Source of the DNA: Bacillota bacterium
GTDB taxonomy: Bacteria; Bacillota_I; Bacilli_A; RFN20; CAG-288
Direction of reading: 5' to 3'
NCBI GenBank assembly: GCA_036830315.1
Contig: DAISOU010000001.1
Location: forward strand, 14,437 to 78,436
DNA length: 64,000 nt
How positions within the stretch are numbered: position 1 is the stretch's first letter; every line of letters starts with the position of its first letter. The notes under the pieces are model-generated. The model was not told where the DNA came from and made no database searches. It was given only the letters and a program-made list of their open reading frames with translations. The position numbers and the translations under genes were made by a program. This document shows, piece by piece, positions 26,490 through 64,000 of this stretch.

Positions 26490-26514
26490 ACTTTTCTCCT
26501 ATAATGTGCTTTCT

Positions 26515-27698: not shown

Positions 27699-27718
27699 AG
27701 TGTTTCTCCTTACCCGCT

Positions 27719-33594: not shown

Positions 33595-33715
33595 GTTTGT
33601 CAGTCTCCGTAAACAATAATAGCAAAAAGCCCTTACACTGGCATTACTTTTGCCATTTTTTGTCGAATTTTGTACATACTTTGCACTAGTCACCATTCTT
33701 CTATTGCTTTACAAT

Positions 33716-37251: not shown

Positions 37252-37284
37252 ATTGGTTTATCTCTTTTCTTTCACTCTACTATT

Positions 37285-37935: not shown

Positions 37936-37952
37936 AAATTTACTCTCCTCTT

Positions 37953-38750: not shown

Positions 38751-38752
38751 AA

Positions 38753-41087: not shown

Positions 41088-41115
41088 AAAGGCTAAGCTT
41101 TTGCTTAGCTGAAAA

Positions 41116-45617: not shown

Positions 45618-45695
45618 TGGTGCTCCCAAACGGATTTGAACCGTTGGCCTACCGCTTAGGAGGCGGTCGCTCTATCCAGGCTGAGCTACGGAAGC
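45618..45695 (-). tRNA. tRNA-Arg(CCT)
   Basis: Hand-folded cloverleaf; anticodon loop CTCCTAA, T-loop TTCAAAT, encoded CCA. Confidence 0.95.
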
Positions 45696-48915: not shown

Positions 48916-48999
48916 GGGGTTATGGCGGAATTGGTAGACGCGCTAGATTCAGGTTCTAGTGACAATATCATGGGGGTTCGAGTCCCCCTAACCCCACCA
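48916..48999 (+). tRNA. tRNA-Leu(CAG)
   Basis: GGGGTTA/TAACCCC acceptor, loop TTCAGGT, long variable arm, encoded CCA. Confidence 0.95.
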
Positions 49000-49010
49000 C
49001 ATATCAAATT

Positions 49011-49040
49011 GAGCCCTTGATTAAGGGCTTTTTTCTTTTT
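49011..49040 (+). terminator. Terminator after tRNA-Leu(CAG)
   Basis: GAGCCCTT-gatt-AAGGGCTT followed by a T-run. Confidence 0.75.
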
Positions 49041-49184
49041 TTGGCGCAAAAGTGGTACAAAATCAGTGTAGGGTGTAGGTTAAAAATCTACACCCCTTCA
49101 AAGAAAAAGCTGAGGTCCTCTTGAAATATTCCCTGCAAAGCGGATATTTCAGTCGTATGCCTCAGATTTTTTATCGGTGAGTCG

Positions 49185-49217
49185 AAAAACCGCCAGTGGC
49201 GGAATCTGGCGGTTTTT
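49185..49217. terminator. Orphan bidirectional terminator-like inverted repeat
   Basis: AAAAACCGCCAG-N9-CTGGCGGTTTTT, perfect 12-bp arms. Confidence 0.6.
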
Positions 49218-49569
49218 AGATTATTTCTAATCCATACTGAGAAGCAGAAGGCTCTTTATAGGATCCGTATTAACAATCGATATGCCCACTCGAAATACTA
49301 CCTGACATCTTGACCATTGATCTAAAAGGTCGTCATGATCAAGCGCGGCTTCTCGGTGAACAGGGCCTGGTGAAAGAGCACGATGTCTAGAAGACCTAAA
49401 TGAAAACGAAAAGACTGAAAATAATCTTTCCTTTCTTCTGGAAATTCATGATATTAATACCCGAGAATTCCTTGAATCAATAAAGAAACATCGTTTTTTT
49501 CATTGTCTAGTCTTTAAATCCAGCCTGATAAACGTTAAAATACTTTATGCCCATAAAAAGGAGCCACCT

Positions 49570-49647
49570 GCGCCCGTAGCTCAGCCCAGATAGAGCACAA
49601 GCCTCCGAAGCTTGGGGCCAAGGGTGCGAATCCCTTCGGGCGCACCA
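49570..49647 (+). tRNA. tRNA-Arg(CCG) with atypical D and T loops
   Basis: GCGCCCG/CGGGCGC acceptor, loop CTCCGAA, D-loop AGCCCAGATA, T-loop TGCGAAT, encoded CCA. Confidence 0.9.
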
Positions 49648-49655
49648 TAATTTGT

Positions 49656-49958
49656 ATGATAACTGCATTGATAAAGAAAATTCTTAACGCCATTGCCTCT
49701 ATGTCGCAAAAAGCCAGCATCGTTTATTGCTGGATTCTTACGACTTTGTTTTTCACTGCCATTGCAATCCTTCTTTCCGGAGTTATCAATCTAATGCCGG
49801 GCCATACTCCTACCTATGCGATAACGCTTTCGACTGTCGGTGGTTTTCTTTTGCTGGCTGTCACTTTTGTTATCTGTCTGACAACTATCTCTTCAAACTA
49901 TGTCAAACGAAAAGAGAAGAAAGAAAAGAAGCAGTCATCTGAAGACGAATCGAAGTAA
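49656..49958 (+). CDS. Small two-TM membrane protein between two tRNAs
   Basis: Two hydrophobic helices and a charged tail; no clear RBS, start uncertain. Confidence 0.5.
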   Translation: MITALIKKILNAIASMSQKASIVYCWILTTLFFTAIAILLSGVINLMPGHTPTYAITLSTVGGFLLLAVTFVICLTTISSNYVKRKEKKEKKQSSEDESK

Positions 49959-49974
49959 TCTTATCCTATTAACT

Positions 49975-50054
49975 GCGGACGTGGTGGAACTGGTAGACAC
50001 GTGGGACTTAGGATCCCATGAGCAATCATGCAGGTTCAAGTCCTGTCGTCCGCA
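49975..50054 (+). tRNA. tRNA-Leu(TAG), CCA not encoded
   Basis: GCGGACG/CGTCCGC acceptor, loop CTTAGGA, T-loop TTCAAGT; discriminator A followed by CGT. Confidence 0.92.
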
Positions 50055-50068
50055 CGTATTAAATGACT

Positions 50069-50241: not shown

Positions 50242-50282
50242 AAAAAGCGTGCGACTGATAATCAATTAATCGCACGCTTTTT
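50242..50282 (-). terminator. Terminator after the GH81 gene
   Basis: AAAAAGCGTGCGA/TCGCACGCTTTTT. Confidence 0.8.
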
Positions 50283-50295
50283 AAAGAATTTCCAG

Positions 50296-53205
50296 TTACA
50301 GATCGACAGAGGTAAACCCACTTACAGCCACTACTTCCTTAATTTTATTACCGCCATAATGAATAGTGACAGTCTTATTGTTCTTACCAGCATTCCAAAG
50401 AAGAACAACTTCTTTAAAACCATTATCGTAGACACTTCCTGCAACATTTGAGGTTATCTCAGCGTAAGAAGCTGAAGAATGATTCTTCAGCCCGTCCATC
50501 GCCTCCACCATCCAATAGGCACCGGACAATTCATTTGGATAATCATCACCAAGTATCTTATTATCGTCAAAGTTATAGATGGCTGTTGAAGAAGAACAGA
50601 GAGACTGGATGGACCACATATTGGAAAACCAGGTTTTAGGTGCTCCGCCTCTTTCTTTCAAAAAGGTATTATAGATCTTTGTCAGTTTCTTCTGCTCATC
50701 GTTTCCCAAAGCATAGGATGATAAGTATTCACCGGTTGGAAGCCAATGAATTCCATAGATGAATTCCGGACTTGGTCCAAACCAAGTCTGGTATTCGTTC
50801 TTGCCACCCCAGACCATGCCTAGAGCATGGACATTGGCACTTGCCGGTATGCCGCTGTCATACCAGTTAGTCTCATCATAATCAAACCAGTACTGTTTAA
50901 CAGAATATAGTTCAGTAGTGTATCCGTAGATGCTGGTATCTACTAATTCTGTATCGCCTGTTGCCAATCCAAACAGATAACCTGCCACCCAGGAATTAAG
51001 GGCTTCACCGCAGGATTCCTGATTATTGCCATCTCCGGCATCTCCGAATCCATCCGACCAACTATGGCCGGAATATGTGTCAAAAGTTCGTAGATATGGA
51101 TACATCTCATCATCTTCGTGATCATAGCTTTCATAGTCTTTCAGTAAGAGAGAAACCATACCTTTGTAGCTAGTCAGGAATGCAGAATCAAACATAGACA
51201 AAACTGCGCTGGCAAAAACCAGGTATCCGTGGGTGAAATGATGATCGCTTAATCTAGTTCCAGTCGAGAAGGCATCATCGCTATAGTACATGCTTCCCCA
51301 AGTATCGTTATAGTAAAGATAACGGGAATCATTTTCACCACTATAGGTGAACCAGTCATCTAAGATAAGACGGATCTTCTCAATAAAGTTGGCCTTGAGT
51401 CTTTCTTCATTCAACTGACTGGCGATAATAAGGCCTTGACTTAACGGATATAGAGCTTTGCTGTTCCAATATGGAGCCGTATTATCGAGATAGTCTTTAG
51501 AATCGACTTTATCGTCATAGACACCATCTGAGACCAAGTTATCATTGAGGCGGTTAAGATAAGAAACCATCTTGATCTTATCAAAGGTAGAAGAAGTCGG
51601 AGTCGTGAAGGAAGGGAGGACGCCTGCAAAACTCATGCTGGTATCAAAGCTATCGTCTGCCAGCATTTTAATCGTTCCTCTCATTGCTTCAACCGAATAT
51701 GGGGAAGGAGTCGAAGCTGTTTTCTTCCACTGATGAGGAAGAAGACCGAAAACGGAAGTCGCATCTGTTTTATCAATATGCTGGACATTGACAGAATAAT
51801 GAGTGTTGACTAAGCTCTTTTTATGGTCGACTGTGAAAGAGGAATTGGACCTGCAAGCCATTGAATAAGCATGCTGATGATAGAAGCTGACCATTTCCTT
51901 CGAGAAGGACTCCCCTAAAGGTGTAACGGAAAAATAATTTCCTTTTGTCGGAGCAATGGTCAGACGATCCAGGAAAGAACTGTCAGGATGAGAATTATGT
52001 TTGGGTGTAAAGACTGTGTTTTCAGGTGCATTGATCAGGAAAAACACATCCTTATATATAGGAGCGCCAAAGGAGACACCATTGCTGACACCATTGTCCT
52101 GATAACTATAACCGCGATGTCTTGATACCAAGGAGACGATTATTCCCTCAGAGGTTATAGGAGTCAGTCCATCTATCTGAGTGCCGTCAAGATTAAAGTA
52201 GCGATAACCGCCAGTCACGCCATCGATTGACAGATCGATATCAGTAGGAGCAGTTCCTTTGGTTTCAAAGAAGACATAAGGAGAACCCTGAGCATAGGTA
52301 ACAACCAAATCATCAATGTTATCGGCCTGATTCTTCAAAGCAACCCTCAAGCCGTTTTCGGAATATGACTGAACTTCAATTTTTGTATTACCGCTTTTAG
52401 CCGGCTTGATCTTCAGATCTCGAAAAGTGGGAGTGAAGTTTGAGATGGTCTTACTAGTATAGGAACCGTTATCAGCCATATCCTTATTAGTACGGTAAAC
52501 CTGGTCACCTCCGACTCCGACATCGGAGATTTCAACTCCGCCATCGATAAAACTGGAACGATACTGATTTATATATAGACCAGTATTAGATGGATTGGTA
52601 AAAAGTCCGCTATACCAAGAATTGGTAGGTATTGGGTTCTCTAATAAATCAGCCCGGATATTGTTAGGGTTGGCAGGGTTGGGGGCCTTAGTCGTACCGG
52701 TTGCATAAGAGCCATCTCCAATATTTACCTGAGTATTGGAAGAATGAGCCTTATTGTTAACTGGCGCCGTATAGGTTCCATTATCACTTACAGTAATAGT
52801 TCTTTGATTAGTTTCAGTCTTAGAATTGTAATCAAGAGTATAAGTCAAAACATAGGACCCGACTGTTCCATAATCCACATAACCGCTGCAACTTATATTA
52901 TCGGTTATATCTATACCAGTTGAAGAAGTAGCTGATACGCCTTCGAAAGCATCAAAATAGTGACCGGTCTTGATTGTAATATCATCGATGCCTTTAATCG
53001 AAGTGGGATCACCTGGTTCAACTGATGATGATGAATTCTGAGATTCTGAATCCTCACCTGTCGATATAGAAGAATCTACATTATTTGAATTTTCACAACT
53101 AGAGGGTGAACTATCAGTCCCTGAGCTTATGATACTTGAATTATTTCCGCAGCTGCAAAGTAAAAACACAGTAAGTAAGCTGATTGCTTTTCGAAGTTTT
53201 TTCAT
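50296..53205 (-). CDS. GH81 endo-beta-1,3-glucanase lipoprotein with DUF5011-type Ig domain
   Basis: Start MKKLRK after AGGAG; lipobox LCSC; Ser linker; PIPTNSWYS, SDHHFTHGY, RTFDTYSGHSW, NNQESCGEALN, GIHWLP motifs. Confidence 0.88.
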   Translation of the reverse strand: MKKLRKAISLLTVFLLCSCGNNSSIISSGTDSSPSSCENSNNVDSSISTGEDSESQNSSSSVEPGDPTSIKGIDDITIKTGHYFDAFEGVSATSSTGIDITDNISCSGYVDYGTVGSYVLTYTLDYNSKTETNQRTITVSDNGTYTAPVNNKAHSSNTQVNIGDGSYATGTTKAPNPANPNNIRADLLENPIPTNSWYSGLFTNPSNTGLYINQYRSSFIDGGVEISDVGVGGDQVYRTNKDMADNGSYTSKTISNFTPTFRDLKIKPAKSGNTKIEVQSYSENGLRVALKNQADNIDDLVVTYAQGSPYVFFETKGTAPTDIDLSIDGVTGGYRYFNLDGTQIDGLTPITSEGIIVSLVSRHRGYSYQDNGVSNGVSFGAPIYKDVFFLINAPENTVFTPKHNSHPDSSFLDRLTIAPTKGNYFSVTPLGESFSKEMVSFYHQHAYSMACRSNSSFTVDHKKSLVNTHYSVNVQHIDKTDATSVFGLLPHQWKKTASTPSPYSVEAMRGTIKMLADDSFDTSMSFAGVLPSFTTPTSSTFDKIKMVSYLNRLNDNLVSDGVYDDKVDSKDYLDNTAPYWNSKALYPLSQGLIIASQLNEERLKANFIEKIRLILDDWFTYSGENDSRYLYYNDTWGSMYYSDDAFSTGTRLSDHHFTHGYLVFASAVLSMFDSAFLTSYKGMVSLLLKDYESYDHEDDEMYPYLRTFDTYSGHSWSDGFGDAGDGNNQESCGEALNSWVAGYLFGLATGDTELVDTSIYGYTTELYSVKQYWFDYDETNWYDSGIPASANVHALGMVWGGKNEYQTWFGPSPEFIYGIHWLPTGEYLSSYALGNDEQKKLTKIYNTFLKERGGAPKTWFSNMWSIQSLCSSSTAIYNFDDNKILGDDYPNELSGAYWMVEAMDGLKNHSSASYAEITSNVAGSVYDNGFKEVVLLWNAGKNNKTVTIHYGGNKIKEVVAVSGFTSVDL

Positions 53206-53280
53206 TTGATTACTCCTAATGATGAATATTGAACGACTATAGGGCAAACTATTATAGACCATTGAATACCTATAGACTTA

Positions 53281-53311
53281 AAAGGCCCCATGAAGTTAAA
53301 ATGGGGCCTTT
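53281..53311 (-). terminator. Intergenic hairpin between lipoprotein and GH81 genes
   Basis: AAAGGCCCCAT-N9-ATGGGGCCTTT with a short U-tail. Confidence 0.65.
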
Positions 53312-53329
53312 CAAGAATACAGATTTTAA

Positions 53330-55510
53330 TTATTCAGCCAGAACACAGGACTGTGAGACGACTTCAAAGTAAGCGTCGGTGGTATCGGCCTTACCGGTGA
53401 AAACCTCACAAAGCTTGCAAGTCACATCATTCAAGGTGACATTGACAGTGAAAGTGTGATCGGCAGCAGCGACAAATTCAGCGCTGGGGAAACCTAATCC
53501 CATGACGATTTCAGTCGCACTGACGACAGTTTCTCCAACTAAGCCAGTTGAAGTCAAGGTAGCTCCGGTCGAAGTGACGATTTTTGCCGTGGTGTTATCA
53601 ACACAGCCAGCAGTCAGAGTATAGCCTTCAGCCCAAGTGACATGAGCCTTGAGCCAGGCTCCGCCGACACCCGAAGATAGTTTTACAGCAAAGCGAGTGG
53701 AGACATCTTCATCAGGGCCAGCAGCTTTGACAGTGATTTCAACTGTGGCCTTATATTCCTTAGAATCGATTGTCACAGAGGCAGTTATTATAGCTGTTCC
53801 TTCCTTGATACCAGTGACTACGCCAGTAGCAGAATCGACAGTTGCAATAGCTTCATCAGACGAAAGGAAGGCAATCGTTCCGGCACCGTATTTGATTTCA
53901 GCTGTCAAAGTGATGGTTTCACCGACTTTGACGGACTTCTTAGTAGAAGTGAAGTTCACTTCCGGACTTAAGACATCAAAGACATCTTCATCATGTTTTA
54001 AGACAGGCATGGTATTATCGGCAAAAGTGAAAACCGTATCCGATAAGGAAGCAAAGCTATCCTTGGTGCAGGAAGCAAAATCAACATTGTTTAAATTGGA
54101 GACGTGAGTATCAGCAATGGTTCCGCCGTTAGGATTGAAGGGCTTGAAGTTTTCATTAGCGGTATCGTGTGCAATATTGGTATAGCCGTTCTGAATCTTA
54201 AATTCACCAGCATCTGCAAATGAATAAGCAAAGAAGGGGAAACACATGGCATCGGGAGCCATCAAATTGGTGACGATGTTATTGATCTTGGCAGCACCGG
54301 AGATGCAGCTGGCAATAACTCCGTTTCTTCCCCAAGTCCAATCTGAAGCTGTACGAGTGTGAGCGGCTTCAAAAATACAATTTTCAATGCTTCCGCCATT
54401 GACTTCCTTAGCTAACAGACCAGAGAAACCAGCGGCATCGATGGCACCGATAAGATGAATATTTCTCATTACGCCGTTGAACAGCCAGAAGATACCAGTG
54501 GCTTTTTCTTTTTCGTTTTCGGAATCATTCCTGACATTGAAATTCTTGACCGTATAACCACAGCCATCTAAAGTGCCGGAGAAGACATTTCCTTCATTAG
54601 AGTTATTTTTAGCGCGTCCGTTTAAAACAGCACCATTCAAATCGATATTCTTTCCTAAAGCATACTTGCCATTGATTGTTCCTTTAGTCTCAACCATAGC
54701 CAAAAACTCGGAAGCAGTATTGATCTTAGTATAGCTATCATAATTAGCGGCAACAGTAAACTCCATTGAAGCGGGATATTCTTTGCCCTCATAAGTGGCA
54801 GTACAGGTGATAGTGGAAGATCCATAGTTTGTCGGTGTGACCCACTGGGAGTTTTCTTTAAATCCCGCAGCTACGGCTGAGCCGATAGCCACTGCATTTG
54901 AACTAGTCGCCCAAGCATAAGTAATAGAGGCATCAGCTTTGGCATTAACTAAAGTAGCAGTGACTAAGTTAGCGCCGCCCCCTTCAGTCAAATTGTTCTT
55001 ATCACCCTCTCTTAAAGCCAAAGTCAGACTGATCACAGCCTTTGCTTCTACCTTGACTGTCAAAGTACCAAACTTACTGGTATCAAAAACAGAAGTGGCT
55101 TTGATGACAGCAGTTCCATCACCGATACCAGTGACCACGCCATTATTATCAACAGTGGCTACTGTTTCCGTATCACTGGACCAAGTCACCTTCTGACTGG
55201 CCTCATCGACAACGACGACAGAAGCAGTAAAGGTAGCAGTGTCTCCGACTTCAATAGTATCCTTACCGGTAACAGTTACCGAAGTAACACTGGGATTCTT
55301 AATAGCTGTAGAACTAGAAGAATCGGGAGCAGGAGTAGATGATTCAATAGATGAAGCCGTAGTCTTATCAGATAAAACAGAACTTTGAGATGAAGAGGCT
55401 GCAGAAGAAGTAGGTGAAGAGCTTAATTTCTCCGATAAGGATGAAATATCTCCGCAACTCGCCAAGGACAATAAGCCTGAAGCTAAAACTAAAAGGATTT
55501 TCTTTTTCAT
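53330..55510 (-). CDS. Lipoprotein with Big_2 Ig domains and a central GLUG-like beta-helix domain
   Basis: Lipobox LASC; Big_2 VTWSSDTETVATVDNNGVVTG and FLSSDEAIATVDSATGVVTG; YTKINTASEF...YALGKNIDL...FSGTLDGCGYTV. Confidence 0.72.
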   Translation of the reverse strand: MKKKILLVLASGLLSLASCGDISSLSEKLSSSPTSSAASSSQSSVLSDKTTASSIESSTPAPDSSSSTAIKNPSVTSVTVTGKDTIEVGDTATFTASVVVVDEASQKVTWSSDTETVATVDNNGVVTGIGDGTAVIKATSVFDTSKFGTLTVKVEAKAVISLTLALREGDKNNLTEGGGANLVTATLVNAKADASITYAWATSSNAVAIGSAVAAGFKENSQWVTPTNYGSSTITCTATYEGKEYPASMEFTVAANYDSYTKINTASEFLAMVETKGTINGKYALGKNIDLNGAVLNGRAKNNSNEGNVFSGTLDGCGYTVKNFNVRNDSENEKEKATGIFWLFNGVMRNIHLIGAIDAAGFSGLLAKEVNGGSIENCIFEAAHTRTASDWTWGRNGVIASCISGAAKINNIVTNLMAPDAMCFPFFAYSFADAGEFKIQNGYTNIAHDTANENFKPFNPNGGTIADTHVSNLNNVDFASCTKDSFASLSDTVFTFADNTMPVLKHDEDVFDVLSPEVNFTSTKKSVKVGETITLTAEIKYGAGTIAFLSSDEAIATVDSATGVVTGIKEGTAIITASVTIDSKEYKATVEITVKAAGPDEDVSTRFAVKLSSGVGGAWLKAHVTWAEGYTLTAGCVDNTTAKIVTSTGATLTSTGLVGETVVSATEIVMGLGFPSAEFVAAADHTFTVNVTLNDVTCKLCEVFTGKADTTDAYFEVVSQSCVLAE

Positions 55511-55565
55511 TGTAATCTCCCTTTTACCAGCCTTTCAAAGAAAACTGGTTCAATGAACAGCAGTC

Positions 55566-55615
55566 ATTTTATAAAGGAAAAATAATAAAGTCAACGCAAT
55601 AAAAAAGGGCTTTCA
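55566..55615 (-). promoter_or_regulatory. Promoter of 53330..55510 with upstream operator
   Basis: TTGACT (55594-55589), 17 bp, TAAAAT (55571-55566); TGAAAGCCCTT at 55615-55605. Confidence 0.75.
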
Positions 55616-55619
55616 ATTA

Positions 55620-57005
55620 GTGGCAATTATTTGATTTCATTCTTGAAACAGCAAAAGCAAAGAAATGCAAAATAATAAGTTTAGATGATTATATTTATTT
55701 TACATATTGTAATTAATTCAAAAATACAAAAATCATAATCAAATGGCTTTTTTCATAAAATAGAAGCAATTATCAAAAAACATTTGGGTCCTGTTATTAA
55801 GAATGGTTTTTTCCGTTTTCCCTTCATTATAATTTTTGAATAAACGAACATACTTTAAGTTAAACAGCAGAGGTGCAAAAAAATAATGAATTGCTTATCA
55901 AAAGCCGATGTAATTTAAATAAATTTTCTTTTAATAATCATTTTATTTCCTGTAATTATCGTGTAAACCAACTTTATAATTTAAATTAAATGTTTATCAT
56001 TAAATAATTAAAAAAATTTATTTGTATGATTTCCAAATAACCCGAAATTAAATAAGTCTCAAGTGAAAAGCAAAAACAATTTTACTATAGAAAAATTAAA
56101 AAAGCTTAGTTATGTATTCAGTTTTTTTGCCTTATAACACTATTATTTATAATTTTTTTATTAATCGTGTTTTTTTAGGAAACTAGCTTTCATAAATATA
56201 TAATTTGTAACATGTTTTTAAGGATTTTTTCTATTTTTTTATTTCTGCTTCTGATCAAAAATTGACATATAAAATGGTATTATTTTCTTATAAAATTGTA
56301 GCCCTTTCTTGGTCTTGAGCAAAAGGTGTACATTATTTAAACTCAAACTTCAAAAATCTTACCAATCAAGTAAAAAAACATGTCTTCGGCGAAAAAGAAA
56401 AATTCAAATCTTTTTTGTCTTTTGTTCGATAATGTCTATTTTTTGAGATTTACATTCACTTTTAGATCGATTGATTGCAATCTGAAGATAAAGTTTTTTG
56501 GAAAATTTATAAATATAACAAACCAATGATTTTTCATTATGATCAAACCATTTTTGGCGTATGTTCTCCATTCCGTTTCTTTGGTTTCAAAATCAATCGC
56601 AAAGGCTCAACAGCGTTTACCAGCCGTTTATTCGATAATGTGACTTTTGTTAATATACTATTTCATAAAACAATTTCTGTTCAACAAACACACCAGAAAA
56701 GGCTTTCTTTATTAATAGTATTGAAGTATACGATCGTTGTTATTAAGTAATTCTCAATCAAAAAAGCAGTCATCAATTTACTTTTGAAACACATGAATTA
56801 TTATTGAAAAATAAGAAGGCTTGTTCTCTTGATTTCCTTTCCTTTTCAAATAATCTTTTACGACTTGCATTAATTAAAAGCCACAAAAAAAGAGCATGTC
56901 CATGCCCTTTTTCTTCGTCTGCTGAAGATAGTCAGAAAATATAGAAACCACTATTGAAGCTTACAATTCTAAACTTCAGTAAGATAGAAACACGCAAAAA
57001 AAGTT
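55620..57005. other. Very AT-rich, apparently non-coding spacer
   Basis: Two hand-counted 60-nt lines had 11 and 6 G+C; no credible ORF. Confidence 0.7.
56885..56912 (-). terminator. Terminator after the GH16 gene
   Basis: Minus strand AAAAAGGGCAT-ggac-ATGCTCTTTTTTT. Confidence 0.65.
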
Positions 57006-57009
57006 AATC

Positions 57010-57987
57010 CTAACTAATCCAATCATAGATTCTGACGTAATCAATCAACATTTCAGCACTAGTGAAAGAATCAGGAGGCATAACTCCATTATCAAAATTT
57101 CCGCCGACTGCCATATTCAGAAGGATGTGGAAAGGCTGATTAAAAGGAGAAGAATCATTTGTGGAATAAGAATCAGTATGCCAGGTAGAAGATGAAACTG
57201 TCATGAATTGGTTATCATCACAATACCAGGTAATGCCTTGTTCATTCCAAATGATGCCATAATTATGGTATTCGCCGATGGTAGTGTAATCTGTAAGTTT
57301 AAACACATTGGTACCTGCTTCATAAGCGTGTTGATTGTTGTCATTTGAATAATGAAGAGCTCCGGAAGTCTGATTAGTCAGCCTTCCTTTTGCTTCCATG
57401 ATATCGATTTCACCAGAATGAGGCCATCCCTGATTCTCATAGTTCTTTTCAGGCAACATCCAGAAAGCCGGCCATAATCCCTTGACTGCGGGAAGAGATA
57501 TACGCGCTTCAATCTTCCCATAAGTAGCTTTTACCTTCCCTTTAGTCCTCAGTCTTGAGGAAGTATAGGAATAACCGCCTACTGACTCTTTCTTAGCCGT
57601 AATAACTAATTTTCCGTCTCTGACTGAAGAATTGTTCCCCTGATAATATTCAGCCTCATTATTTCCCCAGCCCGAGATTCCGTAGGCATCACCGTTACCT
57701 GTCATGTTTTCCCAGATATTGGTATTCAGACTAGCTGAAGAAAATTCATCTGACCAGGATAGTTTCCATCCGGTCTCTTCACCTACTGAAGAAGATGAAG
57801 ATGATGTTGATGAACTTGCTTCAGAGCTGATTTCTGATGAAGAATCCTCCCCTATGCTGGATAGAGAACTATTTGAAGTAGACTCAGTGGAACTTTCAGA
57901 ACTCGAATTGGAATTACCTGAAAAGAGCATCTCACAGGAGTTAAGACTCATAAGGCTGATTAAGATTAAGGAACTGATTCTTTTCAT
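57010..57987 (-). CDS. GH16 beta-1,3-glucanase (laminarinase-type) lipoprotein
   Basis: Lipobox LNSC; Ser linker; WSDEF, GWGNNEAEYY, YTSSRL, WPAFWMLP, WPHSGEIDIME catalytic motif. Confidence 0.92.
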   Translation of the reverse strand: MKRISSLILISLMSLNSCEMLFSGNSNSSSESSTESTSNSSLSSIGEDSSSEISSEASSSTSSSSSSVGEETGWKLSWSDEFSSASLNTNIWENMTGNGDAYGISGWGNNEAEYYQGNNSSVRDGKLVITAKKESVGGYSYTSSRLRTKGKVKATYGKIEARISLPAVKGLWPAFWMLPEKNYENQGWPHSGEIDIMEAKGRLTNQTSGALHYSNDNNQHAYEAGTNVFKLTDYTTIGEYHNYGIIWNEQGITWYCDDNQFMTVSSSTWHTDSYSTNDSSPFNQPFHILLNMAVGGNFDNGVMPPDSFTSAEMLIDYVRIYDWIS

Positions 57988-58007
57988 GGTATATATTATC
58001 CTTTAAA

Positions 58008-58040
58008 CAAATAAGGCTGATTATTCATCAGCCTTATTTG
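58008..58040 (-). terminator. Intergenic hairpin between lipoprotein and GH16 genes
   Basis: CAAATAAGGCTGAT-N5-ATCAGCCTTATTTG. Confidence 0.7.
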
Positions 58041-58082
58041 AGCATTCTAACGGCAAAAGACAAACAAAACTAATAGATGCTT

Positions 58083-59516
58083 TTAAGCCAGGGCCTTAAT
58101 AGTAGGCATCTGATTTTCTTTGATATCAAAGATATGAGAATCCAAATCAGCATAAGAAGCGACAGTGGCATTAGTCCAATTGATTCCAGTGTGATAAGTG
58201 GTCTGATCTTCGACAGGGCTTCCCCATTCCCAGACAGATCCACCGACGACTGTAGAATCAGTATAGAAGTTGACAACTGAGAAAGCCTGAGTACTTTGTG
58301 CATTTGTTCCCTGAGAACCGCCAGCTGGATAAGCGACATCGGCAAAGATTGTCTTAAAGCCGGCTTCCGGAGTCTTGTTGACATTGACGACAATGTTGCG
58401 ATAAGTGCTGCCTTCCTTGAAGACACCAACTAAAGCGGAGTTGAAGGGGAACCACTTGTTGGCATCAATCAAAGACGAATTATCAAAAGTATGGGTTACC
58501 GAAACAAAGATGTTCTCTAAACTTCCAGAACAGGCCGCACAGATAGAAGAAGTGCCCCAGCCAGATCCCTTTTCTCCGATAGTAACGCCGTCAAATCCGA
58601 TGTTGGCGATGATTGATCCTGATTCAGTGGCGGAGAAGAAGCCGCCATTTGAATACTTGTCGGCAGTATTGCCAGTGACGGTGTAATTCTTAATTGAATA
58701 ACCCTGTCCGTCTAAAACACCGGCAAAGGAACTGTTGGTATAGGGAATGGTGTAATTTCCTAAATCAATATCAGAGGTAAGATAATAATTTCCGCTGATA
58801 GTAGCTCCTGTCAAGAGTTTGGTCTTAACATCGTCAGCTGTCGATAATGCGGTCCATCCAGTAGTGTGATCAGCCTTGACGAAGACAGGAATCGTCTTCT
58901 TGAAAGTATCCGAACCAACCTGGAAAGAAACCTGTATGGTATCGGAGCCAAAATTGTTGCAGCTATAGTTGACTGCGTTTGAAGTAGTGGAGCCAGTGAA
59001 GGTTCCCTTAGAATAAAGTGACTTCCAGTTATAAGTGATGGCGCCATCATAATCGGTGACAGTCGCAGTTAAGGCAATAGTATCCTTCTGGGTAGCCAAA
59101 GTCTTATCCGCTTCAATGGTGATGACAGGATTGACGACCGATATGACGTTGATATCTAAACTTGCAGAAACTGTGGCATCAGCTTTGGCAGTAGCCGTAA
59201 ACTTAGTTGTTCCGACTTTTTTTCCTGTAATCAAAACGGAACCATCGTTATTGATTGAACAAGTGGCGATAGAATCATCAGCCATCGCAATATCAAACCC
59301 GGCTTTAGTCGTATCACGGGTAAGAGTGACAGTTAAGTTAGTGGTTTTCCCAACCATGACAGTGCCTTCGCCAGTCAATTTGATCTTAATTTCCTGAGTA
59401 GTAGCTGAAGTTGAAGTACCAGATAAGTCGCCGCTATTGACAGAAGTACCGTTTTCACCACAACCAGTAACTAAGATTAATGAGGCAATAGCTAAGAATA
59501 AACCTGATTTTTTCAT
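58083..59516 (-). CDS. Lipoprotein with Ig-like domains and a GLUG-like beta-helix domain (paralogue-like to 53330..55510)
   Basis: Lipobox VTGC; Big_2 DDSIATCSINNDGSVLITG; WTALSTADD...YYLTSDIDL...FAGVLDGQGYSI. Confidence 0.72.
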   Translation of the reverse strand: MKKSGLFLAIASLILVTGCGENGTSVNSGDLSGTSTSATTQEIKIKLTGEGTVMVGKTTNLTVTLTRDTTKAGFDIAMADDSIATCSINNDGSVLITGKKVGTTKFTATAKADATVSASLDINVISVVNPVITIEADKTLATQKDTIALTATVTDYDGAITYNWKSLYSKGTFTGSTTSNAVNYSCNNFGSDTIQVSFQVGSDTFKKTIPVFVKADHTTGWTALSTADDVKTKLLTGATISGNYYLTSDIDLGNYTIPYTNSSFAGVLDGQGYSIKNYTVTGNTADKYSNGGFFSATESGSIIANIGFDGVTIGEKGSGWGTSSICAACSGSLENIFVSVTHTFDNSSLIDANKWFPFNSALVGVFKEGSTYRNIVVNVNKTPEAGFKTIFADVAYPAGGSQGTNAQSTQAFSVVNFYTDSTVVGGSVWEWGSPVEDQTTYHTGINWTNATVASYADLDSHIFDIKENQMPTIKALA

Positions 59517-59580
59517 TATTTACGTCCTCCCATAATAATGATGAAGAATAGAATCTGATGATTTCTATTTCATTGACCTG

Positions 59581-59631
59581 ATTATATTTTGGAACTTGGA
59601 AAAAAGTCCCAATATTTCGTAAGGGCTTTCA
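59581..59631 (-). promoter_or_regulatory. Promoter of 58083..59516 with the same upstream operator
   Basis: TATAAT (59586-59581); weak -35 GGGACT (59610-59605, 18-bp spacer); TGAAAGCCCTT at 59631-59621. Confidence 0.7.
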
Positions 59632-59650
59632 TTTTTTTCTTATTTGGTAA

Positions 59651-61492
59651 TCAACTTCTAGTCAAGACGAAATTGTCGAGCTGATAAACGACGCCTTTAT
59701 TGTTTATTCTAAGAATGTTCATCCCCTGATTGAAGGCAATTTCTCCAAAAGCGACGTCTTTGAACTGATCGACAGCGTTGGAAGTCAGTATCTCCACTCC
59801 TTCTTCTTTAATGGTCACATTGTTGAGAGTCATATCAAAGAGATTTACTGAATTTGTCTTAACCAGATTCAGATAGGATAAGGCCATGGTCAGTTTCAAA
59901 CTATAGCTTTCTTTCAGATACACGTATAAGAGAATTGAGGAATAGGAACTGGAATTGGAGATGAATAGACTGTTTGAGGCTTTACGGCTATAGTTTCTGA
60001 CCTCGTCTCCTAAAAGGATCAAGTCTTCTCCTTCCATCTTCAAAGTGGTGGTGGCTTCATCGATTCTGGTATTGAACAAAGTAAGACAATCCAAATCATA
60101 ATTGCCAGTGACAGAGATTACCTTCAAAGAGTGCTTTCCTTCCTGGATGACTATATTATTGACTAAGACATCGAAGAAATTGTAATAATCTGTCGGAACC
60201 AGGTTATAAGCTAAAGGAATTAAATCTTCGTCGTCCAGAGTAAATCTGATGACGTGAGAAATATCAAGCTCTTCTCCGACATAGGATAACCTGATAGCCA
60301 AACGTGAATAACAGGCTTCCAGAGTATGGAGAGTGAAGTCGACATAGGTACTTGGCCCGTTAAAGCCGACAATATCATGATTCGGGCCTGAGATCAAACA
60401 GCCGTTGACTAAGATAGCATCCTCGGCTTCAAACCTCTGATTGGAGATAACCGATGAGAGGTTGATGTCGCTGTTGAGAGTAATAGAATCCAAATAGAAG
60501 AATCCGCCCAGGTTTTTGAGAGTAATAGTGTTGCTTCCCTTGATCAAATTAATATACCCAAAGTCAAGACTGCTATAAGAATCCGTCATCGAGGAAAAAG
60601 GCTGATTGTTTATCTTCACATCATTGACAGTGATTTCAACACCCGGCGTATTACTGGATTCGCTCTTTTTCCGGGCTTGGATAGCTAATGAGCTTGTCGT
60701 TTTCTCATCGCTTGAGAAATAAAAGGAAATAGAATCATCCGGGCTTGTAAAGAAGACAGAGTATTTTGTCGAGGCCTTGTCATCAGTGACAATGACAGCA
60801 CCTTGGATATTCTGCTGTCTTTCAGCTTCAAAGACTTGTTTTTTCTCTCGGCTCTTAAAATCACCGCTTTGATAGCCGATCGATGTTTCCTTGGTTGTTT
60901 TTTCCTTTGAGGAAACCAATAAAAGATAATCGATAGAATAAGTGTTAGATAAGGCTGTTATCTTGATTTCGTTTTTTCCGGCACTGAGATTGACCAAAGC
61001 CAGAGTATTCTCCATGAAATCATATTCATCAAAGGAGGGATTGATTTTCAAAGGAAGTTTCACTTCGTTTGAATTCACGTTCAAAGTCATCAAGTTTGAA
61101 GCGGCAATCGCCTTTCCAGTCTGAGAAACATATGATGTCGCAACCACTAGTTTCGCTTCCATAGAATAGGAAACTGACACTTCCAAAGTCAGGGAGGAAC
61201 CGGTAAATAATTCGGTGACCACCTCTTGGTTAGAAGCGTGTATATTGTCCTTCACTTCCGCCGAGCCTGAGAGTTTTGCCGATTCGGCCTCATAAATCTG
61301 ACCCCCAGAGTCTTCTTTGAAAATCTTGGTGTCGCTGCGGTCAATGTATTCGTGATAGGAATAAGTCGGATAATCAGCCAGTGACATCTTCTGCATTATT
61401 GAAACACCGACAATAGAAAGGCAGATTGCAAAAGCGATGATGGTTCCGATGATAGAGAAGATAATATAAAACCGCGATGATTTCTTTTTCAT
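59651..61492 (-). CDS. Membrane-anchored protein with four CBM6/CBM35-like modules
   Basis: N-terminal TM; repeats start YEAESAKL, FEAERQQ, FEAEDAIL, MEGEDLIL and end ..IDYL / ..LDSI / ..LDCL / ..LDNF; no catalytic domain seen. Confidence 0.7.
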   Translation of the reverse strand: MKKKSSRFYIIFSIIGTIIAFAICLSIVGVSIMQKMSLADYPTYSYHEYIDRSDTKIFKEDSGGQIYEAESAKLSGSAEVKDNIHASNQEVVTELFTGSSLTLEVSVSYSMEAKLVVATSYVSQTGKAIAASNLMTLNVNSNEVKLPLKINPSFDEYDFMENTLALVNLSAGKNEIKITALSNTYSIDYLLLVSSKEKTTKETSIGYQSGDFKSREKKQVFEAERQQNIQGAVIVTDDKASTKYSVFFTSPDDSISFYFSSDEKTTSSLAIQARKKSESSNTPGVEITVNDVKINNQPFSSMTDSYSSLDFGYINLIKGSNTITLKNLGGFFYLDSITLNSDINLSSVISNQRFEAEDAILVNGCLISGPNHDIVGFNGPSTYVDFTLHTLEACYSRLAIRLSYVGEELDISHVIRFTLDDEDLIPLAYNLVPTDYYNFFDVLVNNIVIQEGKHSLKVISVTGNYDLDCLTLFNTRIDEATTTLKMEGEDLILLGDEVRNYSRKASNSLFISNSSSYSSILLYVYLKESYSLKLTMALSYLNLVKTNSVNLFDMTLNNVTIKEEGVEILTSNAVDQFKDVAFGEIAFNQGMNILRINNKGVVYQLDNFVLTRS

Positions 61493-62805
61493 TTGTTTTT
61501 GCCTCTGCTAATTGGAATAACACAGTCAACCTGAAACATTTTATCCGCTAGGAAAAGATATATGGTCCCCTTGTATTTATCAACGATCTTCCCCATAGAC
61601 CTAGTTCCAAAGCCATGGTTTTCCTTATCGGCCTTGTCAGTCTTGAGAAAATCGGAGGAATTGCTGTTTTCTTCCGCAAAGAAATTTTCACAGTGAATGA
61701 AGACCTTATTGTCGATGGCCTTGATTGTCAAAGATATAAAACGTTTAGTCGGATCAGTTATCTTGCTTTCATAATCAAGGGCATTGTCAAGCATATTGCC
61801 AAAGAGAGAATAGATATCCTGAGTATCCATAAAGTCGATGGCTTTTCCATCTGTCATACAGGTCAGGACAATCTTGTTTTTCTGACAGCGAAGAGATACG
61901 GAGGAGAGAATGACATCCAGAACTTCGTTTCCAGTTTGAACAATGGACTGATAGATATCGGCTGATTCCTCTAACTGATTGACGATTTTTTCATTCACAA
62001 TGCCAGTTGTCTTGATATCTTCAATCTGATGTTTCAAATCATGAACTTTGATGTTGATCATTTCCATGTTCTCTTTCTGAATCTCATAGTGCTTTCGGTC
62101 TTCTACCCAGATTTGTTTGATAACGGCTATTTCATCTTCTGACTCACCCTGATTCAATAAGGAATAGCAAATCAGGAACATCATCAGTCCATAGAAGACC
62201 TCGCAGATTATAAGCATCATGATATAGGAGGTTGTCGTCGCCTGGATATAAATTTCTATGGCTTCCATCGCTAGTGAGACAACTGAGAAGAAGATACTGA
62301 AGAATAGCAGGTCTTTTAGACCAATCTTATCGATTTTTTCCTGATATCGGGAAATAAAGAATCTCTGAGTGAAGGCTATGACAATGCAAAAGGACAACAA
62401 TTCGATCAGCAGATTGTAATATTCGTTAATGGTTGAAAAAGCATTGTTCAGGGAAATGACGATCAAAGATCCTATCTGTCTGGCCAGGAAGTGAGTCAAA
62501 CCCAAAGCACTTTCCGAAAAACAGGCATAGGCAATACTTGTCTCGTATAAGCTGACTATGGCAGCTGAATCCAGAATATAGAAAAGAAAGACAGTAACTA
62601 AAAGCCAATATGATTGCTGGTTTTCAGGAGCAAAAGAATAAAAATAAGGTAAGAGGAGAACGATTAAAAGACTCAAGGCAAAAAACAAAAAAGCCTTTAA
62701 GAGAAACAGTTTCCTTTTCTTTAATTCCTTTGCAGACAAAAAGAAGGAAATTAAAAACTCCACAAAGAACAATGATGAGTAGGCGACTAAATATAGATAG
62801 TTCAA
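61489..62805 (-). CDS. AgrC-like membrane sensor histidine kinase (GHKL domain)
   Basis: About seven TM segments; KVHDLKHQI H-box, LFGNMLDNA N-box, HGFGTRSM. Confidence 0.88.
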   Translation of the reverse strand: MNYLYLVAYSSLFFVEFLISFFLSAKELKKRKLFLLKAFLFFALSLLIVLLLPYFYSFAPENQQSYWLLVTVFLFYILDSAAIVSLYETSIAYACFSESALGLTHFLARQIGSLIVISLNNAFSTINEYYNLLIELLSFCIVIAFTQRFFISRYQEKIDKIGLKDLLFFSIFFSVVSLAMEAIEIYIQATTTSYIMMLIICEVFYGLMMFLICYSLLNQGESEDEIAVIKQIWVEDRKHYEIQKENMEMINIKVHDLKHQIEDIKTTGIVNEKIVNQLEESADIYQSIVQTGNEVLDVILSSVSLRCQKNKIVLTCMTDGKAIDFMDTQDIYSLFGNMLDNALDYESKITDPTKRFISLTIKAIDNKVFIHCENFFAEENSNSSDFLKTDKADKENHGFGTRSMGKIVDKYKGTIYLFLADKMFQVDCVIPISRGKNK

Positions 62806-63515
62806 GACAGAGACACTTTCTTTTCGTTCAGCTTGTTCAGGACATCTTTCTTTTTGTTACGGGAAAAAGAAATTGGAATCTTCCTGTTAGTCAGATAAGC
62901 TTTGTCTTTGTCAATCGATGTCACTTTCTGAATATTGATAATAACGGAATTGCTGCAACGGGAAAACATATCATCGGGAAGGGACGCTTTCGCGTTAGCC
63001 AAAGTTCCCCAGACTTCTACTTCTTCCTCATTATCGAGATAATAAATCAATAAGTGGTCTTTGATTTCGACATAGAGAATTGAAGACAAGGAAACTTTTT
63101 TAGCTCCGCCGGTGGTCTTGAGAATGATTTCCTGATCTTTGTTTGATCCGACTATCTTCATTGTTTTGATCATCAAAGATTCAAAACGTGCATATTGAAT
63201 AGGTTTCAAAACATAGTCGATAGCATCGACTTGGTAGCCTTGAATCGCATACTGAACCAAGTTGGTAATAAAGATCAAAGGGACATTGCGGTCTTTTTCA
63301 CGTAATTTTTTAGCTACTTCCATACCATTCATATGAGGCATCTCAATATCCATGAAAATCAAATCAAAGTTCTTGCTTTCGTCTAAAAAAGAAAGACCTT
63401 CCTTATAGTGGGTGATGCTGAAAAGAAAATTATTATCCTCTCCAAATTTTAAAAGAAAGCCCTTAAGCGTTTCAAAAGCTTCGTCCTCGTCTTCGACAAT
63501 TGCAGTTTTAATCAT
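62802..63515 (-). CDS. LytTR-family (AgrA-like) response regulator
   Basis: IVEDE, FMDIEM, IDYVLKP receiver; ILYVE...H, FSRCSNSVIIN LytTR domain. Confidence 0.92.
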   Translation of the reverse strand: MIKTAIVEDEDEAFETLKGFLLKFGEDNNFLFSITHYKEGLSFLDESKNFDLIFMDIEMPHMNGMEVAKKLREKDRNVPLIFITNLVQYAIQGYQVDAIDYVLKPIQYARFESLMIKTMKIVGSNKDQEIILKTTGGAKKVSLSSILYVEIKDHLLIYYLDNEEEVEVWGTLANAKASLPDDMFSRCSNSVIINIQKVTSIDKDKAYLTNRKIPISFSRNKKKDVLNKLNEKKVSLS

Positions 63516-63556: not shown

Positions 63557-63565
63557 ATTATAACA
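63557..63565 (-). promoter_or_regulatory. Extended -10 promoter of the LytTR-kinase-CBM operon
   Basis: TGtTATAAT on the minus strand about 40 nt upstream of the start codon. Confidence 0.55.
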
Positions 63566-63648
63566 CAAATAGTTTTCCTGATTTTTTGCAAACTGATCAA
63601 TATTGGAAAAGAACAAGCATAGTGTTAATGAAGTACACTGCTGTTTCC

Positions 63649-64000
63649 TTATTCGATCTTATTGTCCTTCAGTTTTTCGATATCATCCTTGACAAGTCTG
63701 AAAATAATCCATTCATCCATACTTTTGGCATTCATCGATTTATAGAACTTTATCGATGGGGCATTCCAATTCAAACAGACCCACTCCATCCTTTCACATC
63801 CGTTATCAAGAGCAATCTGAGCTAAGAAACTGAAGGCTTTTCTACCTAAACCCAGATGTCGGTATTCAGGGAGAATATAGATATCTTCTACATATAAACC
63901 TCGGTGTCCTTTAAAGGTTGAGAAATTATAAAAATAAACTATATATCCGACTTTCTTTGAATCTAGTTTAATGAAGTAGACATAAGCCGCTTCTTTTTTG
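63649..64000 (-). CDS. GNAT diamine/spermidine N-acetyltransferase-like protein (5' end cut by window edge; absent from ORF track)
   Basis: Hand translation ...YFYNFSTFKGHRGLYVEDIYILPEYRHLGLGRK...MEWVCLNWNAPSIKFY...KIE*. Confidence 0.88.
   Translation of the reverse strand, partial: KKEAAYVYFIKLDSKKVGYIVYFYNFSTFKGHRGLYVEDIYILPEYRHLGLGRKAFSFLAQIALDNGCERMEWVCLNWNAPSIKFYKSMNAKSMDEWIIFRLVKDDIEKLKDNKIE

Follow-up and report, generated by a model that had tools for sequence, protein, structure and literature searches.

Genes and features of the locus

The stretch of DNA considered here, hereafter the window, is 64 000 nucleotides long (contig DAISOU010000001.1 of assembly GCA_036830315.1), and our interest was in a locus at 50296-63515 where a two-component system (TCS) lies next to genes for glycoside hydrolases (GH) of families 16 and 81. 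An initial annotation had described it as a self-contained surface locus for utilisation of beta-1,3-glucan, made of seven co-oriented genes. The listing of open reading frames (ORFs) does give seven, all on the minus strand and at exactly the coordinates proposed. In the direction of transcription, they are as follows (AF2, AlphaFold2; CBM, carbohydrate-binding module; Ig, immunoglobulin; RBS, ribosome-binding site).

62802-63515, minus strand: response regulator (RR) with a receiver and a LytTR DNA-binding domain, 237 aa (Pfam)
61489-62805, minus strand: AgrC-like histidine kinase (HK), 438 aa (Pfam, hydropathy, H-box)
59651-61492, minus strand: membrane-anchored protein with four CBM35/6-like modules, 613 aa, hereafter the CBM protein (AF2, Foldseek)
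58083-59516, minus strand: Lip477, Ig-domain lipoprotein (AF2, lipobox)
57010-57987, minus strand: GH16 lipoprotein of laminarinase type, 325 aa (Pfam, PDB relatives)
53330-55510, minus strand: Lip726, lipoprotein paralogous to Lip477 (Pfam Big_2, tblastn)
50296-53205, minus strand: GH81 lipoprotein, 969 aa counted from M20; the ORF extends to 53262 and has 988 aa (Pfam, PDB, RBS)

The RR and HK ORFs overlap by 4 nt, and so do the HK and CBM-protein ORFs, the start codon of the latter lying in an ATGA overlap with the HK stop. Further downstream the genes are separated by the following features (MFE, minimum free energy).

58009-58039, minus strand: hairpin with a 14-bp stem and a U-rich tract between Lip477 and GH16 (MFE -25.5 kcal/mol, z -4.7)
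56885-56914, minus strand: terminator-like hairpin 3′ of GH16 (read from the sequence)
55620-56884, no strand: AT-rich non-coding spacer, 33% GC, within the 1.5-kb gap between GH16 and Lip726 (55511-57009; ORF listing)
53281-53311, minus strand: strong terminator-like hairpin between Lip726 and GH81 (MFE -31 kcal/mol, z -7.7)
50242-50282, minus strand: terminator 3′ of GH81, followed by a tRNA cluster (tRNA-Leu at 49975-50055)

Because strong hairpins follow Lip477, GH16, Lip726 and GH81, and because of the 1.5-kb spacer, the locus has to be viewed as several transcription units and not as a single operon. The hairpin at 58009-58039 ends about 20 nt 5′ of the GH16 start codon and is found at the same position, with a different sequence, in two of the related loci (L013 and L016; L-numbers designate related stretches of DNA). 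It is likely a partial terminator or attenuator, which transcription starting at the Lip477 promoter would probably read through to reach GH16. The tRNA cluster, which directly flanks the end of GH81, occupies 48916-50055 and comprises tRNA-Leu-CAG, tRNA-Arg-CCG and tRNA-Leu-TAG with a 100-aa ORF in between.

The gap between GH16 and Lip726 contains no ORF longer than 91 aa and has no Rfam match; over the spacer and the whole window, Rfam detects four tRNAs only. In L005, a close relative, the equivalent region measures 4.2 kb and carries a gene for a 1025-aa GLUG-like lipoprotein (with GGLIG/GGIVG repeats) and a methyltransferase gene on the reverse strand. A tblastn search of the spacer for relics of these two genes revealed no coding relic, its sole similarity to L005 being a 132-nt match to an intergenic stretch. 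The spacer thus appears to be a strain-variable hotspot. The assembly of another sample also breaks within it, L002 ending and L011 beginning there; L002 is 91% identical to the window over its first 420 nt.

Predicted surface glucanases and associated lipoproteins

The GH16 protein is recognised by the Pfam family model (PF00722, 2.2e-20, 73.3 bits for a cut-off of 22) and its catalytic motif, G-E193-I-D195-I-M-E198, is of the ExDxxE form. The extra residue denotes the laminarinase type, ExDxE being the signature of the lichenase type. The top 15 matches in the PDB are all laminarinases or endo-1,3-beta-glucanases, two of the 15 being named beta-1,3(4)-glucanase, and the best relatives are 6jh5 (top match, 2.5e-54), 2vy0, 4crq and 3azx.

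For GH81, the catalytic C-terminal domain is also found by Pfam (GH81C, PF17652, 3.8e-39, 135.4 bits for a cut-off of 25.6), and phmmer searches of the PDB retrieve the family-81 hydrolase 6fop (9.5e-65) and BH0236 of Bacillus halodurans (5t49, 2.6e-58). In the numbering of the 988-aa ORF, D673 (within DHHF) and E749 and E753 (within NNQESCGEA) belong to motifs that have aligned counterparts in BH0236; in 6fop, an Ala takes the place of the first Glu of NNQESxxEA. D673, E749 and E753 are taken to be the catalytic acids. The core is preceded by a Ser-rich linker and a Bact_surface_Ig-like domain. The N-terminal beta-sandwich of the family (PF03639) gave no Pfam match, the N-domains of 6fop and 5t49 aligning weakly (10-13 bits), and it is on record for two GH81 homologues, P0005 and P0006. 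As to the start of the gene, an AGGAG lies 8 nt upstream of M20 (53205) and public gene calls give a protein of 969 aa, so that translation most likely begins at M20. The GH81 core with its DHHF and NNQESxxEA motifs is shared with BH0236, 6fop and Paenibacillus PsLam81A (PMC9609564), with E-values of 1e-58 to 1e-64. These enzymes are secreted or cellulosomal and carry CBM6/CBM56 modules or a dockerin, whereas the protein of the window, a predicted lipoprotein, has an Ig-like domain as spacer and lacks a CBM.

Export was judged from a signal peptide ending in a lipobox, [LVI][ASTVI][GAS]C. A canonical lipobox is found in Lip477 (VTGC) and Lip726 (LASC), those of GH16 (LNSC; ATSC in the L019 ortholog) and GH81 (LCSC) are near-canonical, and in all four proteins signal peptide and lipobox are followed by a Ser-rich linker. 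Because family models, catalytic motifs, solved relatives and these export signals all agree, we hold it to be very probable that GH16 (retaining, laminarinase type) and GH81 (inverting) are surface beta-1,3-glucanases. The family calls of the initial annotation are thus borne out, both proteins passing their Pfam models with catalytic motifs kept and beta-1,3-glucanases as best solved relatives.

The two other lipoproteins are more enigmatic. Lip477 (lipobox cysteine at position 19) has two Ig-like domains (residues 44-125 and 131-214) and a conserved Trp-rich C-domain (215-477), modelled by AF2 with a pLDDT of 82 and a pTM of 0.73. Foldseek matches cover the Ig domains alone, and for the C-domain of about 260 residues no fold relative was found in the PDB or BFVD. 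A profile search with Lip477 against the PDB gave no relative either, and Pfam searches at E<=1 with 14 members of the Lip477 family produced no consistent family besides Ig-like ones. A possible GLUG-like motif (FxGxLDGxGYxIxN) was below significance in Pfam. Orthologs of Lip477 are 54-62% identical and always lie between the CBM protein and GH16. Lip726 (also Cys19) is a paralogue, with 24% identity over about 430 aa in tblastn, to which a Big_2 domain (Pfam, 2.8e-14) and C-terminal domains are added; in L012/L013 an 834-aa relative of it, 30% identical, is divergent from the RR gene. Both had been described as Ig/beta-helix lipoproteins, of which the Ig-like part holds (Pfam, AF2, Foldseek) and the beta-helix part was not confirmed by fold or profile searches. 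The Trp-rich C-domain of the two proteins is a candidate for glycan binding or for an unrecognised enzymatic activity. Since Lip477 is well conserved, has a C-domain for which no relative was found and is always located between sensor and glucanase, we see in it a candidate new glycan-binding or catalytic module.

A third type of enzyme is encoded just beyond the window. In the same species, as seen in L002 and L093, a GH3 gene is found about 1.8 kb past the window end, beyond the gene of a GNAT acetyltransferase whose 3′ end occupies 63649-64000, and it is divergent from RR.

L002, 1-2535, minus strand: GH3, same species
L093, 3040-6181, minus strand: GH3, same species

The domain order of this protein is permuted (GH3_C, Fn3-like, GH3_N) after an N-terminal signal or transmembrane (TM) helix, and a small membrane-protein ORF precedes its gene. 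In relatives where the 3′ end of the gene could be read, the GH3 protein ends with a TM helix followed by basic residues, and from these features the relatives are predicted to be extracellular, membrane-anchored enzymes. A GH3 of this kind adjoins the RR, HK and CBM genes in 14 related loci. L093 is scaffold DHDT01000067.1 of assembly GCA_002399505.1, and its locus proteins are 99.6-100% identical to those of the window through Lip726. Across GH81 (L093:18358-21546) identity falls to 81-85%, with interruptions by N-runs, and the scaffold is probably chimeric between two co-occurring strains (NODE_213 and NODE_10354 in ERZ724032).

The presence of this surface-anchored GH3 means that the locus cannot be called self-contained. 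It also qualifies the earlier statement that the locus has neither transporter nor beta-glucosidase: the first part stands, and the second has to be read with an exo-glycosidase sitting just outside the window. No sugar ABC, PTS, MFS or GPH transporter genes were found in the 50-64 kb region, in the flanks available from L002 and L093 or in L012-L019, the sole ABC importer of the window being the Pst phosphate system; more generally, importer, phosphorylase and cytoplasmic beta-glucosidase genes are all absent from the window and from the flanks of relatives. As GH3 is predicted to be extracellular, it could degrade the oligosaccharides to monosaccharide, perhaps glucose, outside the cell, and a dedicated importer for oligosaccharides would then be unnecessary.

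Putative sensor cassette, conservation and candidate operators

A word-indexed search of 5.8 billion proteins brought few matches: 7 with GH81, 6 with the CBM protein and 13 with Lip477 as query. Outside the species group, the closest database homologues of GH81 are only 41-49% identical. Gene order is kept in L005/L017, from a landfill Bacilli metagenome-assembled genome (MAG) with proteins about 80-90% identical, and the succession RR-HK-CBM-Lip477-GH16 is kept in four further lineages (L012/L013/L018, L014/L015, L016 and L019) at protein identities of 38-68% (RR 60-61%, HK 48-66%, CBM protein 38-43%, Lip477 57-60%, GH16 57-68%). Lip726-GH81 is absent from the retrieved DNA of these four lineages. 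Since the distant lineages keep the five genes without this pair, the conserved unit, on the sequences compared, would be the five-gene module, to which Lip726-GH81 is a recent addition. The co-occurrence of the locus genes in relatives, which had been suggested as a check, was thus found, for the five-gene module at least where the distant lineages are concerned. Elsewhere, GH81 is encountered beside amylase/pullulanase lipoproteins (L004) or, in L007, directly after GH16 and another LytTR TCS. The latter is not orthologous to that of the window (RR 29% identical, no HK match); we rejected it as evidence of synteny and kept it as an independent association only.

One could argue that glucanases and regulator are neighbours by chance, with no functional coupling: each gene after the first three has its own hairpin, a 1.5-kb spacer interrupts the series, and the GH81 of L004 keeps different company. 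We regard this as extremely unlikely given the conservation of synteny at 38-68% identity, the existence of a cis element common to the upstream regions of Lip477 and Lip726 (see below) and the independent proximity of a GH16-GH81 pair to a LytTR TCS in L007. A regulatory coupling of the enzyme genes to the RR-HK-CBM cassette is, in our estimation, rather probable.

The domains predicted for the regulatory pair are those initially claimed. RR contains Response_reg (PF00072, 2.4e-19, 70 bits) and LytTR (PF04397, 9.2e-15, 55.1 bits). HK has the GHKL-type ATPase domain HATPase_c_5 (PF14501, 3.8e-21, 75.3 bits), 6-7 TM helices within residues 1-213, an H-box HDLKHQ with His255 and, judging from hydropathy, no extracellular domain. 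Such an HK, of the AgrC/HPK10 type by its HATPase_c_5 domain and multiple TM helices, together with an RR that matches the AgrA model weakly (5e-12, far below the cut-off), raises the question whether the TCS is an Agr-like quorum-sensing module that would place the surface enzymes under control of cell density and not of substrate. This appears very unlikely: with all ORFs of the loci accounted for, no AgrB-like, AgrD-like or other peptide-pheromone gene was found in or beside the cassette, either in the window or in related loci, and the third conserved gene is that of the CBM protein.

The CBM protein begins with a K-rich, predicted cytoplasmic tail of about 6 residues, followed by a TM helix (residues 7-32), a juxtamembrane motif, DYPTYSYHEYIDRS, and four internal repeats of about 130 aa, each starting with (Y/F)EAE. 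The AF2 model (pLDDT 77) displays four beta-sandwiches, which Foldseek superposes on the Clostridium thermocellum CBM35 2w1w (TMt 0.79, rmsd 3.1 A, 140 columns); further matches are 2w47, the CBM35 3zm8 and 5x7o, CBM35-bearing enzymes being among them. Because the modelled beta-sandwiches superpose on CBM35 structures, the description as a four-CBM membrane protein stands at the level of predicted fold; at that of sequence thresholds it does not, as detailed below. The protein has no RsgI_N anti-sigma domain, and there is no sigma factor gene in the locus.

In an exhaustive profile search with the CBM protein, 52 representatives of clusters were retrieved at E<1e-30. Some 45 have a length of 599-628 aa; two-module versions of about 340-360 aa also exist. 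The family (about 45 representatives) shares the short basic tail, the TM helix and a motif, [DN][FY]PxYxYx[ED]Y[IV][DN]R[ST], located before the first GAQLYEAE. In six close homologues of the window clade, one face of the TM helix (F12, I15, G16, A20, C24) is invariant. Scans of species-representative genomes and tblastn mapping yielded 17 distinct loci where the upstream sequence of such a TM-CBM gene is available. An AgrC-like HK gene is immediately upstream in all 17, a LytTR RR gene precedes HK wherever the sequence extends far enough, and the CBM gene overlaps or directly abuts HK in the loci with listed reading frames. The hosts are MAGs of Bacilli and Clostridia, with rumen, cecum, chicken, rabbit, human gut and landfill as sources; a cultured host (e.g. 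Butyrivibrio) was sought in the genome-collection scans, which returned MAGs only.

From this arrangement, we propose, tentatively and on the basis of sequence, that the CBM protein may act as a co-sensor, i.e. as the ligand-binding partner of HK. A competing proposal, which we rate as somewhat less plausible, is that it is a mere surface tether for glycans, analogous to the surface glycan-binding proteins (SGBPs) and co-transcribed with a TCS whose HK would sense laminaribiose or glucose, a membrane or envelope cue, or a peptide. AgrC-type kinases do sense ligands through their own TM bundle, the CBM protein has few cytoplasmic residues and no recognisable signalling domain, and the LytTR TCS beside GH16-GH81 in L007 comes without any CBM protein. 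Against a tether-only role, the gene order of HK and CBM is invariant over the 17 loci, with overlapping or abutting frames in those listed, while the downstream enzymes change, and the TM face and juxtamembrane motif are the best conserved parts in a family otherwise 25-40% identical, which is not expected of a simple anchor.

The genes 3′ of the cassette are indeed variable: GH3 in most cases, Lip477-GH16 in the window clade, and Lip726-GH81 in the closest relatives only. In most of the distant cassettes it is a GH3, not an endo-glucanase, that directly follows the CBM gene. This observation bears on another view of the locus, namely that it is mainly mycolytic or antagonistic and attacks yeast or fungal walls so as to kill competitors or free cell contents. 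GH81 and GH16_3-type enzymes can lyse yeast walls, an example being PsLam81A from a Paenibacillus isolated on yeast cell wall (PMC9609564), and the absence of importer, phosphorylase and cytoplasmic beta-glucosidase reported above would fit with such a function. We nevertheless consider a mainly mycolytic role unlikely, since an extracellular GH3 that would yield monosaccharide is consistently linked, and its place right after the CBM gene in most of the distant cassettes speaks for a role in acquiring nutrients. Both roles could coexist.

Two RR-HK-CBM cassettes can occur in one genome. In a close relative (L085, JBAXZY010000015.1), a second CBM protein, 33% identical, is encoded beside a GH3, and RUG810 (L019/L020) has two CBM genes on different contigs. 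Such duplication suggests paralogous sensors for different glycans.

LytTR regulators recognise two direct repeats of 9-10 bp separated by a spacer of 12-13 bp and located upstream of the target promoters. The candidate cis elements of the window are the following.

63557-63567, minus strand: predicted extended -10-like promoter element TGTGTTATAAT upstream of RR (read from the sequence)
59615-59649, minus strand: candidate LytTR operator 5′ of Lip477, the conserved block TACCAAATAAGAAAAAAATGAAAGCCCTTACGAAA of 35 nt
55587-55619, minus strand: second TGAAAGCCCTT core (55605-55615); a TTGACT-17-TAAAAT promoter for Lip726 lies 10 nt downstream

The TGTGTTATAAT element is conserved in L017, and no operator-like repeat was seen upstream of the RR gene of the window. 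The 35-nt block is found throughout the window clade, as TACCnAnnnnGnAAAAnnTGAAAGCCCTTACGAAA, at the equivalent position between the CBM gene and Lip477. Over six orthologous loci, 27 of its positions, T26-A42 included, are invariant, whereas the flanking proteins are only 39-60% identical. Within it, TTACGAAA occurs once, with a degenerate copy 21 nt further upstream, and 28 nt separate the right edge of the block from the -10 TATAAT of Lip477, with a weak -35 in between. Exact matches to an 11-mer core of the block, TGAAAGCCCTT, number two over the 64 kb of the window; they are on the gene strand, one preceding Lip477 and the other Lip726, and chance would give about 0.03 exact copies in 128 kb. 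We considered whether TGAAAGCCC...GGG might be nothing more than the terminator of the CBM gene, and rejected this because the sequence is invariant even though the stem is not conserved, L005 and L013 having none.

More distant cassettes show the geometry usual for LytTR operators: in L024, L025, L026 and L027, the gene strand carries a perfect GTTAYGAAA-N12-GTTAYGAAA (18 out of 18 positions) in the interval from the CBM gene to its downstream neighbour, and in L024 also upstream of RR; L022, L023 and L028 have matches at 16-17 positions out of 18. Shuffled sequences gave a background of 5-11 matches at >=15/18 over 403 kb, and the real low-scoring matches are at the same level. In L017 (5676-5966), a lipoprotein gene divergent from RR is preceded by ATGACGAAA-N12-GATACGAAA (15/18) and by AATGAAAGCCTTTAC, which nearly reproduces the core. 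This gene may also belong to the regulon; the window genome lacks it at this place. A possible stem-loop with an AAUCAU-containing loop is also seen in the 5′ untranslated region of Lip477 (59517-59580) and in L005, L013, L014, L016 and L019, with lineage differences in sequence; RNAalifold support is weak (-0.97 kcal/mol, compensatory changes in 3 out of 7 pairs) and we make no claim for it.

Proposed function and comparison with known systems

Taken as a whole, the sequence data make it probable that the region is the larger part of a glucan-induced system for depolymerisation of beta-1,3-glucan at the cell surface, in an uncultured member of the Bacilli related to 'Candidatus Enterosoma'. 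The polymer would be cut at the surface by the two lipid-anchored endo-glucanases, the retaining GH16 and the inverting GH81, and the resulting oligosaccharides would probably be trimmed, possibly down to glucose, by the TM-anchored GH3 exo-glycosidase. As for induction, we infer that the CBM protein would bind extracellular glucan and modulate HK via its conserved TM helix and juxtamembrane segment. Phosphorylated RR would then bind the 35-nt block, which precedes the weak -35 of Lip477, as well as the related site before Lip726, and activate Lip477, with read-through past the hairpin into GH16, and Lip726, with GH81.

Several points weigh against this scheme. Its support comes from sequence and predicted structure throughout. 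The clean tandem-repeat operator is that of the distant cassettes and not of the window, the Lip726 site shares the 11-mer core only and has no TTACGAAA repeat, and neither GH16 nor GH81 has an operator of its own. With Pfam CBM_35, the CBM protein scores 17.2 bits, below the cut-off of 28, and the homologue P0011, at 28.2 bits for the whole protein, is about at the cut-off with no single stretch that passes. Every match of GH3 with NCBIfam models is far below cut-off. The CBM protein hardly reaches into the cytoplasm; signalling would therefore need contacts within the membrane, and the protein could equally be a plain glycan-tethering one. Lastly, because the GH16-GH81 pair of L007 neighbours a different LytTR TCS without a CBM protein, a CBM partner is not obligatory for such loci.

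Concerning the host, SecY is 80-85% identical to that of MAGs labelled 'Candidatus Enterosoma', 'uncultured Mollicutes bacterium UMGS171' or 'Bacilli/Bacillales bacterium', and 52-56% identical to that of MAGs labelled Erysipelotrichaceae, which makes the earlier 'Mollicutes/Erysipelotrichales-like' a reasonable label. The standard genetic code fits the ORFs of the window. Some of the relatives come from a municipal landfill (JGI 3300014203; PMC9723747). A block of 48% GC at 13811-28519 is no foreign element, being explained by the ribosomal-protein operon region (L3, L2, S3, L5, S5, SecY, Adk, Map, RpoA). Other genes of the window deserve a brief mention. A GH2 (827 aa, 31213-33696), a GH13 of the alpha-amylase family (516 aa, 11752-13302) and a 916-aa Big_3 protein (4620-7370), the last adjoining an ABC-ATPase/TMEM164 fusion (794 aa), are not linked to the glucanase locus. 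A complete phosphate module at 34874-42099 comprises a PhoR-like kinase, an OmpR-type regulator, PhoU, PstB, two Pst permeases, both with unusually long genes (421 aa), and a PstS-like protein, and a tRNA-Arg-CCT lies at 45618-45695.

The combined attack of bacterial GH16 and GH81 enzymes, with or without GH3, on beta-1,3-glucan is well known, and the enzymology of the locus is of ordinary, known kinds. The manner in which Gram-positive bacteria of guts and digesters sense insoluble or polymeric glycans is far less understood than that of Bacteroidota. Known Gram-positive solutions are LacI or AraC regulators acting on imported sugars, kinases linked to solute-binding proteins, and RsgI/SigI in cellulosomal clostridia.

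LytTR regulators have been seen in the neighbourhood of surface glycosidases before. Secreted GH3s that end in a TM helix were noted beside such regulators in Butyrivibrio proteoclasticus B316 (Kelly et al. 2010, PMC2914790), and RR[LytTR] is listed in a Roseburia Gram-positive polysaccharide utilisation locus (gpPUL; Ros-7), gpPULs being defined by the association of enzyme, transporter and regulator (Sheridan et al. 2016, PMC5320581). The likeness to these loci lies in the LytTR RR and kinase beside surface-anchored GHs and, for Butyrivibrio, in a GH3 anchored by an N-terminal signal and a C-terminal TM helix. Unlike the gpPULs of Lachnospiraceae, the present locus has GH16 and GH81 as enzymes and a reduced-genome Bacilli host, and it fails the gpPUL definition because no transporter was found. 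A CBM-bearing membrane partner is not described in the two papers on the Butyrivibrio and Roseburia loci.

The closest functional analogue of the proposed co-sensor is RsgI/SigI of C. thermocellum, where biomass is sensed by a single-pass membrane protein exposing CBM-type modules (PMC6852018) and the matching GH genes are switched on. RsgI/SigI relies on a cytoplasmic anti-sigma domain and an alternative sigma factor, whereas here neither is present and the signal would pass to an AgrC-like HK and a LytTR regulator, and there is no sequence relationship. In architecture, the closest systems are the accessory-protein three-component TCSs of Bacillota, VraTSR, GraXSR and LiaFSR (PMC8774646; bioRxiv 10.1101/2025.01.23.634444), in which an intramembrane-sensing HK without extracellular domain is modulated by a membrane protein of the same operon. 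In contrast with the cassette, they sense cell-envelope stress, do not belong to the HPK10/LytTR families and have accessory proteins without CBMs. Finally, the laminarin PULs of Bacteroidota (Bacteroides, PMC7157763; BguR, bioRxiv 10.64898/2026.01.10.698779) similarly place a surface GH16 endo-laminarinase and a GH3 under a dedicated membrane-spanning sensor, and also pair GH16 with surface glycan-binding lipoproteins. Their regulators, hybrid two-component systems (HTCS) or the one-component BguR, have beta-propeller sensors and are unrelated to the RR-HK-CBM cassette; moreover, SusC/SusD are not seen here among the annotated ORFs, there is no periplasm, and GH81 is absent from Bacteroidota PULs.

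No LytTR system with a CBM-bearing membrane protein as partner came up in full-text literature searches. What appears novel is thus the conserved RR-HK-TM-CBM cassette with its candidate operator, as a variant of accessory-protein two-component signalling. It is conceivable, although we would not yet favour it, that the cassette represents an undescribed class of polysaccharide sensor, defined by a CBM subunit of two or four modules, an AgrC-type HK, a LytTR regulator, the GTTAYGAAA-N12-GTTAYGAAA operator and adjacent glycosidase genes. If true, the pairing of CBM protein and AgrC-like HK would be a new sensing design, a Gram-positive counterpart of HTCS/SusR/BguR and of RsgI-SigI, and it would imply that 'quorum-sensing-type' kinases can be recruited to nutrient sensing. 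The cassette offers a small and testable regulon, with a defined candidate operator, two promoters and three enzymes. For the bacteria themselves, the gene content suggests that reduced-genome, Mollicutes-like Bacilli of guts, rumens and landfills may be able to attack beta-1,3-glucans, such as those of yeast and fungal walls, laminarin and curdlan, wholly at the cell surface, which would have a bearing on cross-feeding and on the use of yeast-derived feed additives.

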